Assembly: GCA_038042445.1 (NCBI GenBank)
Contig: JBBTED010000027.1
Location: 32,001-96,000 of the forward strand
DNA length: 64,000 nucleotides
DNA from: Candidatus Firestoneibacteriota bacterium
Lineage (GTDB): Bacteria > Oederibacteriota > D2-FULL-39-29 > JBBTED01
Reading direction: 5' to 3'
Shown piece by piece: positions 42,914 through 49,669 of this stretch. The notes beneath the pieces are model-generated. The model worked only from the letters and a program-made list of their open reading frames with translations. It made no database searches and was not told the DNA's origin. The position numbers and the translations under genes were made by a program. The first letter of the stretch is position 1; every line of letters begins with the position of its first letter.

Positions 42914-43636
42914 ATGTTAAATAATATAAATACCTTTATTCAAAAAATTAGAGCTGAACTTAAAATCAATGCTGATGAAAAAACTAAACAAAGTTTTCAG
43001 CGTTTTTTTAAAGAACAAATTAAGTGTTATGGCGTAAAAACCGAAATAGTACGCAAAATCGCTAAAAAATACTGGCAAGAAGTTAAGAAATTGAACAAAA
43101 AAGAGGTTTTCTCCTTTTGTGAAAAACTTTATGCTTCAGATTATTGCGAAGAAGCTTTTATTGTTTCTTATTGGATTCCAAATTTGACCAGTCAATTTGA
43201 ACCAAAAGATGTAATGATATTTGAGAGGTGGATTAAAAAATATATCAATAATTGGGCAAAATGTGATAGTTTTTGCAACCATTCTGTCGGAAATTTTATT
43301 GAAAAATATCCACAATACATCAAAGAATTAAAAAACTGGAGTAAATCAGATAATATCTGGTTGAAAAGAGCATCTGCTGTATCTCTTATTATTCCAGCTA
43401 AAAAAGGTAAATTCCTGTCGGATATTTTAGAAATAACCAATCAGTTATTATTGGACAAAGATGATATGGTTCAAAAAGGATATGGATGGTTATTGAAAGA
43501 AGCAAGCAGACATCATCAACAAGAGATATTTAAGTATGTTGTAAAAAACAAAAAGAAAATGCCACGCACCTCTTTAAGATATGCTATTGAGCTAATGCCA
43601 AAAACACTTAAATCCAAAGCGATGAAACATGATTAA
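42914..43636 (+). CDS. DNA alkylation repair protein (AlkD-like)
   Basis: NNWAKCD, W.KRAS, DMVQKGYGWLLKE, MPRTSLRYAIE. Confidence 0.88.
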   Translation: MLNNINTFIQKIRAELKINADEKTKQSFQRFFKEQIKCYGVKTEIVRKIAKKYWQEVKKLNKKEVFSFCEKLYASDYCEEAFIVSYWIPNLTSQFEPKDVMIFERWIKKYINNWAKCDSFCNHSVGNFIEKYPQYIKELKNWSKSDNIWLKRASAVSLIIPAKKGKFLSDILEITNQLLLDKDDMVQKGYGWLLKEASRHHQQEIFKYVVKNKKKMPRTSLRYAIELMPKTLKSKAMKHD

Positions 43637-43648
43637 AAAGATTTTTAT

Positions 43649-43900
43649 TTAATTACATCCACAGCCTTTTTCTGCATCATCATTAAATGCTTCAACACTT
43701 TTAATTACTGTTGAAATAACCTTGTCCATTTTACCCATTGCACCTTTTCTTACCATCTTTCCTACTTCTATTGCTTCCTCAATTTCCTGTTCATTAGCTC
43801 CATTTTCTTTTGCCTTACTGACATGATAGTTTAAACAAGGCTGACAATTTGCAGTAACCGATGCACCAATTGCTATCAATTCTTTAGCTTTATCGTCCAT
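43649..43900 (-). CDS. Carboxymuconolactone decarboxylase/AhpD-like protein
   Basis: ELIAIGAS..ANCQPCL.YH; C-terminal CGC. Confidence 0.85.
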   Translation of the reverse strand: MDDKAKELIAIGASVTANCQPCLNYHVSKAKENGANEQEIEEAIEVGKMVRKGAMGKMDKVISTVIKSVEAFNDDAEKGCGCN

Positions 43901-43920
43901 AACACCTCTCCTTTTAATTT

Positions 43921-44610
43921 TTACGATCTTGAGAATTCTGCTTTAGAAAATATATGAATATTGGAATTAGCCAACAAATTCGTAGTTGTAATTATTGCTG
44001 CTATAATATATTTTTTTACAGCTAATTCCTCTTCTTTAACACCAAAACCAGGCATTGATGGTCCGCATATATAAAAATTTGCACCTAAATCTTCCAGAAT
44101 TGCTATAGTCTCTTCAGGGACAGGCCATCCTATTTGATTTTTCAGTATTTTTTTTACGAGTCCAGTAAAAAGAATACCACTAAATCCTGAAAGTTTTGAG
44201 TGATAATCTTTTTTTAACAGCCGCACACCTGCTCCTTCAAATACAATATTTACTTCCATTCCCAATACAGCTGCAGCTAATGCCTTACAAAAAGGTAAAA
44301 GCACTTGTTCTAACCGAGCTGTAGAAATAATAACTGTCATTTTGTTATTGTTTTTCTTTTGTTCACCCTTCTTAATAAACAAACTTTGTTTGTTTTCTTC
44401 CTTTTTTTCTGAACCAAGGAAAATATGGCCTGTTAAATCACAAAATGTTTTAATGTCTGCAAGAATTCCTTTGTTATCTTTAATAATCACCTCTAAAGTC
44501 TCCCCTATTTTAAGATAATCCATTTCTTTAACAATTCTATATGCAACCATATCTGGCTTTAATGTTTTAGAGGTATCAATAATAGTTTTCTTTATTTTAT
44601 CTTCAGCCAT
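43921..44610 (-). CDS. TusA-like + DsrE-like fusion
   Basis: N-terminal SirA/TusA fold (GETLEV..D....DIKTFC..TGH), C-terminal DsrE fold (FEGAGVRL, YICGPS). Confidence 0.7.
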   Translation of the reverse strand: MAEDKIKKTIIDTSKTLKPDMVAYRIVKEMDYLKIGETLEVIIKDNKGILADIKTFCDLTGHIFLGSEKKEENKQSLFIKKGEQKKNNNKMTVIISTARLEQVLLPFCKALAAAVLGMEVNIVFEGAGVRLLKKDYHSKLSGFSGILFTGLVKKILKNQIGWPVPEETIAILEDLGANFYICGPSMPGFGVKEEELAVKKYIIAAIITTTNLLANSNIHIFSKAEFSRS

Positions 44611-44648
44611 TATACTCACCTCCTTATTTAATTCTTGAAGTTAAATTT

Positions 44649-44951
44649 TTATCCGCAACAACTAGTATTTTGTAAAGTTTTAGTTTTATCTGAACCACAA
44701 CCGCAAGCTGCTTCTTGTCCTGTTAGTGCTGATATCATCATAGCAGCAGCACATCCTACACCTACTTCTACAGATATAGCTTGTGCCTGACAATTTTTCT
44801 GACAGGCTCCACATTCCATACAATCTAAAAGATGAATAATCTCAGCTTTTTTATTTCTGATTTGAAAAACATTGTGCGGACAAACTTCTATGCATCTGCC
44901 ACAACCTGTGCATTTGCTTTGTTCAAGTTCTAAAGTAGTTATAGTTTTCAT
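44649..44951 (-). CDS. hgcB: Mercury methylation ferredoxin HgcB
   Basis: CTGCGRCIEVC, CMECGACQKNC, GVGCA, C-terminal CC; directly downstream of hgcA. Confidence 0.95.
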   Translation of the reverse strand: MKTITTLELEQSKCTGCGRCIEVCPHNVFQIRNKKAEIIHLLDCMECGACQKNCQAQAISVEVGVGCAAAMMISALTGQEAACGCGSDKTKTLQNTSCCG

Positions 44952-44964
44952 ATTATCACCCCTT

Positions 44965-46023
44965 TTATATAAACTTCCAAACAAATTGGATTATCCAAAT
45001 ACTCAGTGCTGTAACTATTCCAACTGCTATCCAGGGAATTACTGTTTTGATTTCCTGACGCACACCATTAACAGAAGTATAAGTAGTGGCACCTGTAAAA
45101 TTAAGTGCAATAAACGCTGAAGCTGAAACATTAGCAGCTAAAAAAGGTATGAACTGCCAGATGGACATAGGCAAAATTAAACTAATTACTAATGCTTGCA
45201 AAAATCCCCAAAAGGCACCTTTTGTAGTCAACCATTTCCCAGGCAAAATATTATGCAAAACTGGAATTGCAATACCTGTAATCATAATACCAGCTATACT
45301 TAAAGCTATAGTAGGGCCAGTAACAAACCATAATATAATAGTAGCCAGTAAAACAGGTAGAAAAACAAATCGTAATTCCATAGGAATCAAAATAACTCTC
45401 TCTGCTAAATTAAATGTAACCAAACGCATAGATGAAGTAACCCTGCCAGTATCCAAAAAAGCAGGCAAATCTTTGGCACGTACTGGTCCATAAACTACAC
45501 GGAATCCTGTTTGTTTTTCAACTTCATGCGATGCAACTCCAGGTGCACCTAATTGTTGAACAATTAACCTGTGATGCTTGACTTTTTTTTCTAATTCTGA
45601 TGTTTGAACACGTCTTACGATTTCTTCAGTTCCAAAAGTACCCTTACCAGCCGCACACCAGACATTAATGCCTTTAGTATCCAGAACTAAAATCCATGCA
45701 TTGTCCCCTTCTAAATTTTTTCTTAAAACATCAAAACTCATACGATAATTAGCAGATACTAATACAGGTGAATTTTCATCTGGAGTACCCAATGCCCAAA
45801 GTCCAGGTGTAACAATAGCATTCATACGCCCTATTCCCCATCTGTATTTCCATTGATTCAAAGTATCATAAAAATCAAAATGACTATCTGTTTTGTATAT
45901 TCTTGTCTGTGACCAAATCTTTGTCTTTTCAGACTGATCTGTACTATCCGGATATTCAATACCATTTATATCTATCCCAGTTACATTACTTAATATATTA
46001 GTTACAGCAGTTTTTCTATTCAT
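44965..46023 (-). CDS. hgcA: Mercury methylation corrinoid protein HgcA
   Basis: Cap helix GINVWCAAGKGTFG, LGAPGV, YGPVRA, C-terminal TMs with NFTGATTYTS; start ATG 46023 after GAAGGTGA. Confidence 0.97.
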   Translation of the reverse strand: MNRKTAVTNILSNVTGIDINGIEYPDSTDQSEKTKIWSQTRIYKTDSHFDFYDTLNQWKYRWGIGRMNAIVTPGLWALGTPDENSPVLVSANYRMSFDVLRKNLEGDNAWILVLDTKGINVWCAAGKGTFGTEEIVRRVQTSELEKKVKHHRLIVQQLGAPGVASHEVEKQTGFRVVYGPVRAKDLPAFLDTGRVTSSMRLVTFNLAERVILIPMELRFVFLPVLLATIILWFVTGPTIALSIAGIMITGIAIPVLHNILPGKWLTTKGAFWGFLQALVISLILPMSIWQFIPFLAANVSASAFIALNFTGATTYTSVNGVRQEIKTVIPWIAVGIVTALSIWIIQFVWKFI

Positions 46024-46052
46024 TTTTAGATCACCTTCTTTATTTATTGTTA

Positions 46053-46352
46053 TTACTGTTTTTTTGTTTCCTCGGATCCAGAACATTGACAACCACTTAA
46101 TTTTTTTCGCGCCATTTGCCGAAATATTAAAAACAACCCTAAAAAAAACCATAGTATTCCAACTGCTACAAAAATTTTGCTATGTTTGTGCAAAAACGCT
46201 ACTGTCCCTGCTCCTAACAAAAATGCAAATGGGCCTGCAAGTATTGCACCACCGCAAACAGGAGCACAAACAACACAAGTAGCTCCTAACAACCCTGCTA
46301 CAGATGAAATTGCTCCACCTACCATATTAACTATACCCGCTTTTTTACTCAT
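46053..46352 (-). CDS. Small Cys-rich membrane protein, MerT/MerC-like
   Basis: About 3 TMs, CVVCAPVC near TM1, C-terminal CQC; ATGA-coupled to hgcC. Confidence 0.6.
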   Translation of the reverse strand: MSKKAGIVNMVGGAISSVAGLLGATCVVCAPVCGGAILAGPFAFLLGAGTVAFLHKHSKIFVAVGILWFFLGLFLIFRQMARKKLSGCQCSGSEETKKQ

Positions 46353-46654
46353 TTTTCTTTACCTCCTTTATTTATTTCTTCCATCACAGGTCCAAGTATG
46401 TTTTTTACCATACCTGCAAGTTCTTCAACTTTTATCAAACAAATACAACACGTTTTTTTATTATCCCCCATGCTTGCCACTGCTAATTTATCACCAGATT
46501 TGATATTCGCTTTGTCTCTAACTTCTTTTGGCAACACCATTTGCCCACGTTCATCCACACTCACCAATGCCTCAACTTTGCAACAACTCATATTGTTTAT
46601 ACCGTTTGCATCACAACATGTTTCTTTTTTATTTCTTTTAGCCATTTTACTCAC
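46349..46654 (-). CDS. hgcC: AbrB-fold HgcAB-associated protein
   Basis: CCKVEALVSVDERGQMVLPKEVR..IKSGDKL, several CC pairs. Confidence 0.8.
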   Translation of the reverse strand: MSKMAKRNKKETCCDANGINNMSCCKVEALVSVDERGQMVLPKEVRDKANIKSGDKLAVASMGDNKKTCCICLIKVEELAGMVKNILGPVMEEINKGGKEK

Positions 46655-46684
46655 CCCCTTTTTAGATTATTCAGTCAATTCTTA

Positions 46685-46730
46685 AAAATCAGTATATGCT
46701 GATTTTACTAAATTTCTGAATTTATGTCAA
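46685..46730 (-). promoter_or_regulatory. hgc operon promoter with overlapping palindromic operator
   Basis: TTGACA-17 nt-TAAAAT (46730-46702); AAAATCAG-N6-CTGATTTT (46685-46706). Confidence 0.78.
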
Positions 46731-46835
46731 TAATAATTTGCAGAGAAGTTTTCCCATTTTTATAAAAATAGTACAAACATTTGCAAACAATTCAATGCAC
46801 CTAAGATGTCATTTTCACAAAACAATAATAATAAT

Positions 46836-46896
46836 GTAGAAGGGGCTTTAGCCCCGGTATTTTCTTCTTTATACGTTCGCCTAGGCGAACTTCTAC
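46836..46896. repeat. GTAG REP doublet
   Basis: gtagaaggggctttagcccc..gttcgcctaggcgaacttctac. Confidence 0.7.
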
Positions 46897-47035
46897 ATAA
46901 AAATTTCATTTCCACTTTCTAATTTTATAAAATCCTTTATTCATCTGTGATTTCCTCAATTTATAACAAAATTTTGGGGAAATGCCTCTAATTTGCATTG
47001 ATTTTTTGGATTTTATAATTTATAATCTTGGCTAT

Positions 47036-48262
47036 ATGAAACAAGTATATTTAGACAATCATTCTAATACACCAATTGATGAGCGCGTATATAATGAAAT
47101 GCTGCCGTATTTTTTAGAATTTTATGGTAATGCTCAAAGCATGCATTCTATTGGCGCAAAATCTAAAGATGCTATAGAAAATGCACGAACACAAGTTGCA
47201 AATCTCATTGGAGCAAAAGCAGATGAGATTTATTTTACATCATGTGCTTCTGAATCTAATAATCTTGCTATTAAAGGTATTGCCCAAAGCTATAATCAAA
47301 AAGGAAAACATATAATTGTCTCAAGTGTAGAACATTTTTCTGTTCTTTATTCTGCAAAACGTTTAAGTCAAAATGGATTTGAAGTCACTTATCTTCCTGT
47401 TGACAAATATGGGTTAGTTTCACCAGACGATATCCAAAATGCTATAAGAAATGATACTATACTTGTTTCTATTCAGCATGCAAATCCAGAAATTGGAACA
47501 ATACAACCTATATCTGAAATATCAAAGATTGTTCATAAAAAAGGTGTTTTATTTCATACAGATGCAGTATGCACAACAGGACATATTCCTGTTAATGTAA
47601 ATGATTTAGGAGTTGATATGTTGACTATATCTTCTTCTTTGATGTACGGACCAAAAGGCACTGCAGCACTTTACATAAAAAAAGGTGTGAAAATAATACC
47701 GCAAATTGATGGCGGTATTCAGGAAAACGGTAGACGCGCTGGCACAGAAAATGTGCCCTGTATAGTTGGCTTTGGCAAAGCTTGTGAAATTGCGAAAATT
47801 GAAATGAGCGAAAATTACAAAAAATTGCTTAATTTACGCAATCGTTTAATTGCTGAATTGCCTAAAAAAATAGAGCATTTATATTTGAATGGCCATCCTG
47901 AATTAAGACTTCCAAATAATGTAAACTTCTCAGTTGAATTTATTGAAGGCGAAGGAATGCTTTTGTTTTTAGACCAAAAAAACATTTCCGTTACAAGTGG
48001 ATCTGCCTGCACTTCAAAATCGCTAAAAATGTCTCATATTTTATCTGCTATAAAAACAGATACTGCTATAGCTCAAGGTTCAGTTCTAATGACTCTTTCA
48101 AAATATAATGATGATAACGATATAGACTATGTTTTAGCAGAATTTCCGCCAATTGTCCAAAGACTGCGGGAGTTATCGCCGTTGTATTCTTATTTTATTA
48201 AAACAGGCAAACGTCAGATTGCAGGTCCGGGCACTGATTACGAACATACATATGAACATTAG
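47036..48262 (+). CDS. iscS: Cysteine desulfurase
   Basis: VYLDN, EHFSV, HTDAV, RAGTEN, SGSACTS; the usual SxHK PLP motif reads SSSL. Confidence 0.85.
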   Translation: MKQVYLDNHSNTPIDERVYNEMLPYFLEFYGNAQSMHSIGAKSKDAIENARTQVANLIGAKADEIYFTSCASESNNLAIKGIAQSYNQKGKHIIVSSVEHFSVLYSAKRLSQNGFEVTYLPVDKYGLVSPDDIQNAIRNDTILVSIQHANPEIGTIQPISEISKIVHKKGVLFHTDAVCTTGHIPVNVNDLGVDMLTISSSLMYGPKGTAALYIKKGVKIIPQIDGGIQENGRRAGTENVPCIVGFGKACEIAKIEMSENYKKLLNLRNRLIAELPKKIEHLYLNGHPELRLPNNVNFSVEFIEGEGMLLFLDQKNISVTSGSACTSKSLKMSHILSAIKTDTAIAQGSVLMTLSKYNDDNDIDYVLAEFPPIVQRLRELSPLYSYFIKTGKRQIAGPGTDYEHTYEH

Positions 48263-48351
48263 TAGGGGCGAGTTTACTCGCCCAATAAACGGGCAGGTAA
48301 ACCTGCCCCTACAATTATCAGTAAATTTTTACACTATTTAAGGAGGAAATT

Positions 48352-48735
48352 ATGCCGTTTTATTCAGAAAAAGTAATGGAACATTTTCAGAATCCACGAA
48401 ATGTAGGAGAAATAAAAGACGCTGATGGTATTGGAGAAATTGGAAATCCTGTTTGCGGGGATATGATGACTTTTTATATAAAAGTTAAGGATAATATTTT
48501 GGAAGATGTAAAGTTTAAGACATTTGGATGTGGAGCAGCTATTGCTGTTTCGTCAATGGTAAGTGAAATGGGAAAAGGAAAAACATTAGATGAAGCATTA
48601 AAAATAACAAATGCATCAGTTGCTCAGGAACTCGGCGGACTTCCACCGAATAAAATGCATTGCTCAAATCTTGGTGCAGATGCATTACACAAAGCAATAG
48701 AAAATTATAAGAAAAAACAAGGAGGCACGAAATGA
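48352..48735 (+). CDS. iscU: Fe-S cluster scaffold
   Basis: NPRNVG, GNPVCGD, FGCGAAIA, KMHCS. Confidence 0.93.
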   Translation: MPFYSEKVMEHFQNPRNVGEIKDADGIGEIGNPVCGDMMTFYIKVKDNILEDVKFKTFGCGAAIAVSSMVSEMGKGKTLDEALKITNASVAQELGGLPPNKMHCSNLGADALHKAIENYKKKQGGTK

Positions 48736-48905
48736 AAGAGAAAAAATGCAAATGCCCTTTTTGTGAAGGTGAATTATTATTTAAATGTGTTGCTCCTGTT
48801 TTTTGCGAAAATTGTGCGATAACACTTCTAAAATGCAAAAAATGCGATAATTTATTCAATGAGAAATTAAAAATTTGCCCAAAATGTGGAGAGAAAAATG
48901 ACTGA
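48732..48905 (+). CDS. 57-aa double zinc-ribbon protein (absent from ORF track)
   Basis: MKEKKCKCPFCEGELLFKCVAPVFCENCAITLLKCKKCDNLFNEKLKICPKCGEKND; GGAGG RBS; overlaps both neighbours. Confidence 0.8.
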   Translation: MKEKKCKCPFCEGELLFKCVAPVFCENCAITLLKCKKCDNLFNEKLKICPKCGEKND

Positions 48906-49392
48906 AGAAAATTCACCTGTACAAATGAAAGATAAAATGACAATAATTTTATTTTCAGGAGAATTAGATAAAGCAATTGCAGCATTCACACTTGCTACAA
49001 CTGCTGCAGCCAGTAATATGGAAGTAAGCATATTTTTTACATTTTGGGGATTAAATACTTTAAAGAAAACAACCTTTGTACCTGCAAAACCACAAATGAT
49101 AATGCAAAAAATGCTGAATTTTATGAACCGGGGTTTACCACTTTCACGCCTTAATATGTTTGGCTTAGGACCATGGATGATGAAGAAACTTATGAAAAAA
49201 ACCAAAATGGCATCTTTAGAAGATTTAATGAAACTTGCAAAACAATTGAATGTAAAATATATTGCTTGTACAACAAGCTGCTCAGTAATGGGACTATCCA
49301 AGGAGAGTTTAATTAGTGACGTTAATGAATTTGCAGGTGCATCAACTTATCTTGCAGAGGCTAAAGATGCAAAAGTAAATTTATTTATATGA
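48898..49392 (+). CDS. DsrE/DsrF/DrsH-like protein (DsrE2)
   Basis: FSGELDKA, FFTFWGL, ACTTS. Confidence 0.88.
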   Translation: MTEENSPVQMKDKMTIILFSGELDKAIAAFTLATTAAASNMEVSIFFTFWGLNTLKKTTFVPAKPQMIMQKMLNFMNRGLPLSRLNMFGLGPWMMKKLMKKTKMASLEDLMKLAKQLNVKYIACTTSCSVMGLSKESLISDVNEFAGASTYLAEAKDAKVNLFI

Positions 49393-49441
49393 TTTATTTA
49401 GCAAAGCTTATGCTTTGCATCTACAAAAAATAATAAATATT

Positions 49442-49669
49442 ATGAACATTACAAAATCACTGGATTGTATTGGCCTTTTTTGCCCTATGCCTGTGGTTAA
49501 AACTCAGCTTGAACTTGAAAAGATGCAATCAGGTGAAATTCTTGAAATCACAGCAGATGACCCAGGCTTTGAAAAAGATTTACCTGCATGGTGCAATATG
49601 ACCGGAAATAAATTCCTTGAAATAAAAAAAGAAGGCAACATCTTAAAAGGCTACGTAATAAAATTGTAG
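49442..49669 (+). CDS. tusA: Sulfur carrier TusA
   Basis: LDCIGLFCPMP, ADDPG, DLPAWC. Confidence 0.9.
   Translation: MNITKSLDCIGLFCPMPVVKTQLELEKMQSGEILEITADDPGFEKDLPAWCNMTGNKFLEIKKEGNILKGYVIKL

Follow-up and report, generated by a model that had tools for sequence, protein, structure and literature searches.

A Cys-rich membrane protein remotely related to Mer carriers in a predicted mercury-methylation operon, and the links of its family to HgcA and ArsM

What would a 99-amino-acid (aa) membrane protein do inside a mercury-methylation operon? The question is raised by a small gene placed between hgcC and hgcA in a Candidatus Firestoneibacteriota bacterium, within a 64,000-nucleotide (nt) stretch of contig JBBTED010000027.1 (assembly GCA_038042445.1, positions 32,001 to 96,000 of the forward strand), which we call the window. 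The entry of Hg(II) into methylating anaerobes is still poorly understood according to the accessible part of a recent source (PMC12915048, 2026), which assigns mer transporters to non-methylating aerobes; the accessible part of another presents the native role of HgcAB as open, with arsenic as a candidate (10.1101/2022.10.17.512643). In this report, we describe an unnamed protein family to which the 99-aa protein belongs, its remote relation to Mer carriers and its genomic partners; the genomic context of its relatives is the strongest evidence for a partnership with methyltransferases. The answer that we favour, with confidence only a little above even, is that the protein is a membrane thiol relay that would bind As(III) or Hg(II) and hand it to the adjoining methyltransferase, here HgcAB, a reading in which we infer both the substrate and the direction.

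A conserved family and its relation to Mer transporters

The 99-aa protein has Cys residues at positions 26, 29, 33, 88 and 90, and its hydrophobic part extends from roughly residue 7 to residue 80; it gave no Pfam match, one insignificant NCBIfam match and no curated family above cut-off. Word-based homologue searches returned 3, 8 and 14 matches, and an exhaustive profile search of 1.84e9 representatives returned 46 matches at E<=1e-3, with 24 at E<=1e-10. We defined a core family of 35 members (13 from alignment A3, 19 from the exhaustive profile search and 3 loci), excluding a frameshifted near-copy (P0003), a fragment (P0031), locus L021, which is the same as protein P0019, and the 19 weakest matches (P0036-P0054). 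Judged from these alignments, the family is real and conserved, without a name or curated model. The initial annotation had named conservation of the Cys residues in homologues as a point on which its proposal could fall, and the conservation was confirmed: at the hinge, C33 is present in 35/35 core members, C26 in 30/35 and C29 in 22/35, every member has between two and five hinge Cys, and 31/35 have at least three. Cys also stands at position 37 in 23/35, where the window protein has Ile, P31 is kept in 29/35 and a His occupies position 55 in 22/35; in the tail, the C88 column holds Cys in 27/35 members, and at least one tail Cys is found in 30/35. Lys and Arg together average 2.3 at the N-terminal end, 3.8 at the C-terminal end, 0.8 in the loop at 53-60 and 0.03 in the hinge, and both ends are therefore predicted to be cytoplasmic. 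AlphaFold2 gave three helices from 13 sequences (predicted local distance difference test, pLDDT, 63.5) and two helices from 45 sequences (4-29 and 35-85; pLDDT 74.4, predicted TM-score, pTM, 0.38), and the Cys cluster lies at a turn in both models, whose pTM is low (0.35-0.38).

Family members were not found in plasmids or viral contigs. A search of mainly open-access main texts turned up no published account of the family, nor any Mer-like domain joined to HgcA or to ArsM; supplementary neighbourhood tables (for example those of PMC10349881 and PMC7438021) might list a member as a 'hypothetical membrane protein'.

The nearest named family is MerT. The family profile matched a true MerT in genome G099 at E 2.9e-5 (PF02411, 67.9 > 32.9), the gene of which lies between a metal-sensing repressor gene and an HMA gene. 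The comparison set consisted of annotated MerT, MerC, MerE and MerF from plasmids together with MerT matches from the source phylum. HHalign aligned the family with nine MerT at 95.6% (E 1.1e-8, 70 columns), a set that includes the G099 MerT found through the family itself; without that MerT the value was 78.7%, a score that 0/100 seven-column shuffles reached (best shuffle probability 60.6%), and reversed and fully shuffled controls stayed below 2%. The alignment covers MerT residues 2-77 and sets C88 opposite C76; immediately ahead of the GP kink, the family has 11 inserted residues, among which the Cys cluster lies. The 35-member profile gave 91.7% with all MerT, 74.2% without the G099 MerT, 17.8% with MerC and 0.5% with MerE, and HgcA membrane-segment controls stayed below 1%. 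With a MerT hidden Markov model (HMM) built without the G099 MerT, the 99-aa open reading frame (ORF) ranked 1st of 14049 six-frame genome ORFs. The two commonest NCBIfam matches among 45 aligned members are MerT models (8 and 7), and of the 19 weakest library-wide matches, 7 resemble Pfam MerT or MerC at scores under the cut-offs, one of these being fused to HMA; at its weak end, the match list shades into MerT-like proteins.

Like MerT (PF02411; NF010314, NF033560, NF033556 MerTP), the 99-aa protein is small and hydrophobic, with Cys in its tail and close to the first helix, and the two share the GP kink, a G-x-G loop, an L-x-x-Y-x-x-x-F segment and a Cys after a basic cytoplasmic stretch. 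In contrast to MerT, where the vicinal CC would stand it carries the 11-residue CxxCxPxC insert, it lacks a third helix, the family's neighbours are methyltransferases and not merP or merA, and its members stand on a separate branch: the 35 core rows and one tail row form a supported group (96/84) apart from curated Mer proteins, in a tree of few columns and many rows. The vicinal pair of MerT (C24/C25) is not kept, the C26/C29/C33 cluster lying just upstream of the aligned position instead, and merR, merP and merA are not in the operon. MerF resembles the 99-aa protein in size, in having Cys close to helix 1 and in carrying two Cys in a basic tail, and the CAACFP of MerC resembles the CxxCxP of the family; these proteins and MerE differ from it in their weak profile similarity (MerC 18-41%, MerF 0.5-9%, MerE about 1%). 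The 99-aa protein falls below the cut-offs of MerT (PF02411), MerF (PF11431), MerC (PF03203) and MerE (PF05052), and appears to be a remote member of the Mer carrier superfamily that is not itself MerT, MerF, MerC or MerE. Fold-based searches, made with the low-pTM models, gave no Mer match of significance: at E<=10, Foldseek returned no match in one search and a single, insignificant match in the other, and a VIA search of 48161 chains peaked at Z 5.1, on generic helices, its best 50 rows containing no Mer protein. A search of Protein Data Bank sequences with the family profile found nothing below E 0.2, and ESM Atlas scores of 0.80-0.82, which are at lead level only, included one MerF-containing cluster at rank 13, and the P0032 domain gave no informative match there. 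Thus, of the 'MerT-like' label in the initial annotation, a remote profile-level similarity to diverse MerT is retained, and membership in MerT is not.

The Cys pattern also bears on a different role, that of a membrane thiol-redox or sensing partner which, as a CxxC relay or as a signal to HgcC, would keep the Cys residues of the methyltransferase reduced or report a metal(loid) without moving an ion. CxxC spacing occurs in 22/35 members, the operon also encodes TusA-DsrE and CMD/AhpD thiol proteins, and the 99-aa gene is translationally coupled to hgcC; however, it is C29 that varies and C33 that is invariant, the similarity is to MerT rather than to a thiol oxidoreductase, and hgcC was not seen beside the homologues in L019-L023. 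We consider this role very improbable.

Partner methyltransferases and the proposed relay

Some genomic context was available for ten core members, of which 9/10 are linked to HgcA, ArsM or an MtrA-like domain, and 5/6 have such a direct neighbour when only loci with DNA are counted; this partner count is skewed, in that fusions show their own context and both hgcA-positive family genomes were seeds. At L023, in genome G099, the homologue begins 43 nt after hgcB (hgcA 432/275 and hgcB 126/99, score over cut-off). P0032, a protein of 475 aa, carries the family domain at 1-100, followed by HgcA (399/275) with an intact NVWCAAGK. The three family-linked HgcA proteins (window, G099 and P0032) are about 40-42% identical and do not group on the tree, and the small domains of the same three cases are likewise not clustered. 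At L019, one 372-aa ORF combines the family domain with ArsM (335/263 on NF008823), and the end of P0002 resembles, in frame, the start of the L019 ArsM when compared by eye. A Cys-rich domain like residues 12-86 of the MtrA model PRK00964.1-6 is fused to the family domain in P0011 and P0012 and is encoded by the next gene in L021 and L022. In these four cases (L021:8239-8487 and L022:3841-4077 for the loci) it is a six-Cys domain of about 80 aa, stand-alone or fused, that resembles the N-terminus of the 390-aa MtrA model and belongs to no Pfam family. Co-occurrence with hgcA, another point on which the proposal could have fallen, was thus extended to a second genome and to a one-ORF HgcA fusion; the support is qualitative, and the family is rare in the source phylum.

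The reuse of the family with ArsM and with the Cys-rich MtrA-like domain suggests that it is likely a portable substrate-feeding module and not an Hg-only importer. In the MerT relay described in the accessible part of PMC5715351, Hg(II) moves from C24/C25 to C76/C82 and is then given to MerA, and the Cys tail of HgcB has been proposed to carry Hg(II) or CH3Hg in that of PMC7305189. In the relay that we propose, both ends of the 99-aa protein would lie in the cytoplasm, a location of the C-terminal end that is favoured because fusions to cytoplasmic enzymes fit it. The C26/C29/C33 cluster, an enlarged site at the place of the first Cys pair of MerT, would capture the ion, which would move to the tail pair C88/C90, aligned with MerT C76, and from there to the HgcB Cys tail and the HgcA corrinoid, as it goes from MerT to MerA; the methyltransferase would thereby take the role of MerA.

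A narrower explanation is an Hg(II)-selective importer, exactly MerT/MerF-like and dedicated to HgcAB, which we regard as unlikely. It would account for MerT being the nearest named family and for three independent-looking HgcA links, one of them a fusion; in addition, no MerA was above cut-off and no MerT was found in the 90%-complete source genome, so an imported ion would meet HgcAB. However, fusions to ArsM and to the MtrA-like domain speak against it, as does the absence of the family from 31/32 hgcA-positive genomes of the source phylum. Sites of three or more thiols fit trigonal As(III) no less than Hg, and by this general chemistry the 3-5 hinge Cys of 31/35 members would suit As(III) equally. 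Of the earlier proposal that the protein may deliver Hg or another metal(loid) to HgcA, the wider form is better supported because relatives are fused to ArsM and to the Cys-rich MtrA-like domain, and the Hg-only form is weakened by the same fusions.

The constant link to enzymes that make a toxic methylated product also admits the reverse direction, with the protein carrying CH3Hg+, or methylarsenite in the case of ArsM, off the enzyme and out through the membrane. MerE moves CH3Hg by a transmembrane Cys pair and a loop His, according to the accessible part of PMC5715351, and His55 of the family is present in 22/35 members; Hg uptake is also described as coupled to methylmercury export in the accessible part of PMC7438021. 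Such export is nonetheless distinctly unlikely in our judgement: the Mer carriers described in the accessible literature bring mercurials into the cell, the family's profile match to MerE does not rise above background, and the 99-aa protein has no evident energy coupling.

Several observations weigh against the thiol relay as the preferred reading. With regard to Mer ancestry, HHalign gave 0.5% against the four classical MerT alone (0.4% with the 35-member profile), and MerF and MerE similarity was 0.5% with that profile; the first rank of the 99-aa ORF in the genome has an E of 0.073, and a classical-only MerT HMM does not rank it first. The vicinal CC-x-GP of MerT is not preserved in the family, and the third MerT helix is missing, with C88 aligned to C76, C90 next, and then the end of the protein. 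Tail Cys are absent from 5/35 core members, P0032 among them. With regard to partners, 25/35 core members are without known context, and no methyltransferase gene adjoins the family gene in L020. The match to MtrA falls well short of its cut-off (best E 1.5e-5); the MtrA-like domain was not found in the 99 source-phylum genomes or in plasmids, and its identity therefore rests on that sub-cut-off match. A GGAGG and an ATG precede the ArsM part in L019, and P0032, available as protein sequence without DNA, has a Met at 89, right after the family domain; either fusion may therefore be two in-frame genes. Finally, the family is rare: within the source phylum it occurs in 1/99 genomes, the source genome itself, with hgcA above cut-off in 32/99; in the phylum of G099 hgcA occurs in 2/20 genomes and the family in 1/20; and in 29 other hgcA loci from 27 genomes, with flanks of about 1.5-4 kb, neither the family profile, nor a broad Mer-like HMM, nor a MerT HMM matched any frame at E<0.1.

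Absent from 31 of the 32 hgcA-positive genomes, the family is therefore not a general Hg uptake route, and the 99-aa protein, a rare accessory, does not explain how methylators in general take up Hg. This rarity, the locus L020 without a methyltransferase, and the variability of hgcA neighbours, which are often ars genes (also in the accessible part of PMC7438021), would suit a passenger of general metal(loid)-stress cassettes that has no part in HgcAB chemistry. We give this explanation very little credence, for the gene is placed inside the hgcC-hgcA unit with an ATGA overlap, relatives are joined in frame to HgcA and ArsM, and five of the six loci with DNA have HgcA, ArsM or the MtrA-like domain as a direct neighbour. 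The hgcA share of the source phylum is high. Among the closest HgcA relatives are the loci L041:3977-5991, L042:2463-4686 and L043:3793-5084; hgcA is directly followed by an hgcB-like ORF in L043 but by none among the ORFs called in L041, and L042 has, about 0.9 kb downstream of its hgcA, a gene that looks DsrE-like by eye.

The operon, its promoter and its surroundings

The operon consists of six closely packed genes, all on the minus strand at 43649-46645, with starts picked by ribosome-site position (Table 1). The intergenic distances from hgcC through the 99-aa gene, hgcA, hgcB and tusA-dsrE to the CMD gene are -4 (the ATGA overlap), 29, 13, 38 and 20 nt. HgcC scores 110 bits against a cut-off of 70 and contains an AbrB-type domain; HgcA scores 370 against 275 and has the cap-helix motif and a C-terminal membrane domain; HgcB scores 110 against 99 and has two 4Fe-4S motifs, the second ending in CQ where CP is usual, together with the conserved GVGC Cys and tail Cys. 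On these scores, HgcA, HgcB and HgcC are members of curated families, and Hg methylation by this HgcAB is predicted. The gene order, location and family assignments of the initial annotation were all recovered, with Pfam cut-offs passed for TusA, DsrE and CMD, as were its sequence motifs: CVVCAPVC (C26, C29, C33), the CQC tail (C88, C90), the ATGA overlap with hgcC and NVWCAAGK are present in the translations and sequence.

Table 1. Features of the operon and its promoter region (window positions)
Feature	Position	Strand	Basis or remark
Candidate sigma-70-type promoter, TTGACA-17-TAAAAT	46702..46730	-	Function inferred from position
Inverted repeat AAAATCAG-N6-CTGATTTT over the -10/start region, candidate HgcC operator	46685..46706	not assigned	8-bp arms
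hgcC, candidate AbrB-type Cys-rich regulator, 98 aa from an ATG with ribosome site	46349..46645	-	NF040962, PF04014
Gene of the 99-aa Cys-rich membrane protein (unnamed family, remote relation to MerT), with hinge C26/C29/C33 and tail C88/C90	46053..46352	-	
hgcA, corrinoid mercury methyltransferase, 352 aa, NVWCAAGK intact	44965..46023	-	NF040863
hgcB, dicluster ferredoxin, GVGC cysteine, Cys-rich tail (CGC...CCG)	44649..44951	-	NF040864
TusA-DsrE fusion, sulfur-carrier-type domains	43921..44610	-	PF01206 29.4 > 28.6; PF02635 35.7 > 22.7
CMD/AhpD-type protein with CQPC	43649..43900	-	PF02627; TIGR00778 above cut-off

The known hgcC-hgcAB arrangement is recognized here by all three proteins passing its cut-offs, and an AbrB-like gene directly upstream of hgcA is already described in the accessible part of PMC10349881; the present operon differs in the membrane gene between hgcC and hgcA and in the tusA-dsrE and CMD genes downstream. 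The single promoter claimed before hgcC is kept as a candidate: the site is in place and is the best of 25 (11/12 consensus letters), but 24.5 sites are expected by chance, a number equal to that found, and co-transcription is read from the layout. The inverted repeat was matched in 78/1000 shuffles and alone is not significant; its core, ATCAG-N6-CTGAT, stands just after the -10-like site in both hgcC promoters examined (window and L037), and HgcC would likely repress the operon through this repeat. HgcC is present in 2/99 genomes of the source phylum. In the second, G005, stacked ATCAG/CTGAT repeats occupy the hgcC promoter and hgcA was not found; there (L037:692-1752) hgcC overlaps the start of an S-adenosylmethionine-dependent (SAM) methyltransferase gene whose best match, below cut-off, is the DVU1556 family.

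With respect to assembly, 43500-46435 is spanned by a contig of run X3 that shows no indel relative to the window, and the stop of the 99-aa gene and the separate start of hgcA are therefore as assembled. At window position 45557, all four read runs show G on the plus strand, which changes hgcA codon 156 from Gln to Pro, a residue near-invariant at this codon in an alignment of 15 HgcA; an assembly error in the window, or an uncommon variant, may account for the difference. A frameshift fusion of the 99-aa gene to hgcA in the source genome was also considered, the hgcA frame being open for 52 codons upstream with A7/T8 runs present, and was rejected because hgcA has its own ribosome site, the tail is conserved in P0017 and the contigs have no indel. 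The guanine-plus-cytosine (GC) content and GC3 of the operon are those of the flanking genes, so there is no compositional sign of recent import.

Downstream, a DNA alkylation repair gene (PF08713; 42914-43636) runs towards the operon and stops 12 nt short of the end of the CMD gene, with no terminator-like site found between the two genes. Upstream, a divergent plus-strand run of iscS/nifS, nifU, dsrE2 and tusA (46982-49669) adjoins the operon; this run could provide HgcB with Fe-S clusters, and it parallels the TusA-DsrE fusion. Between hgcC and iscS, at about 46700-46985, lies a dispersed AT-rich repeat with hairpins that has six further BLAST matches in the genome (74-90% identity), and the sole terminator-like site found (46842-46855) falls inside it.

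Arsenic links and significance

The remainder of the operon fits a metal(loid)-methylation cassette, as far as its domains can tell. ArsM-AhpD fusion selenoproteins have a C-terminal domain to which the CMD protein is similar (NF041537 positions 281-330, E 2.5e-11), and CMD homologues occur in 2/29 of the other hgcA loci (L049 and L050), in runs that look like arsR-acr3-CMD-x-arsC-hgcA-hgcB; several neighbours in other hgcA loci also look, by eye, like acr3, arsC and arsR. The source genome, 90% complete, has acr3 on another contig and no arsM, MerT or MerA above cut-off. The accessible parts of the published accounts report that arsenic regulates hgcAB in ND132 (10.1101/2022.10.17.512643) and that ars genes are frequent neighbours of hgcAB (PMC7438021). 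The present locus shares with those neighbourhoods (PMC7438021 Fig. 6; 10.1101/2022.10.17.512643) partners common to hgcAB and arsenic genes, the 99-aa protein family and the CMD domain each being joined to ArsM elsewhere; in contrast, the neighbours named in the accessible parts of these sources are acr3, arsC, arsM and arsR, with no Mer-type membrane gene among them. The ArsM fusions argue against Hg specificity.

A bolder extension of the relay would make this the first dedicated import-and-channel subunit of a mercury methylase, that is, a MerT-derived carrier recruited repeatedly, up to fusion with HgcA, and moving Hg(II)/As(III) through the inner membrane directly onto the HgcB Cys tail, its exchangeable use with ArsM then marking HgcAB as having evolved as an arsenic-type import-and-methylate machine; we think this rather doubtful. 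The hgcC-hgcAB arrangement is already known, and what is new is a Mer-related membrane family linked to HgcA and ArsM. Its rarity narrows the ecological reach, in that uptake would be explained in a minority of methylators only. Within that reach, a Mer-related protein coupled or fused to HgcA or ArsM provides a concrete object of 99 aa that bears both on Hg uptake and on the native job of HgcAB, and the natural HgcA fusion P0032 offers a ready construct for structure work.

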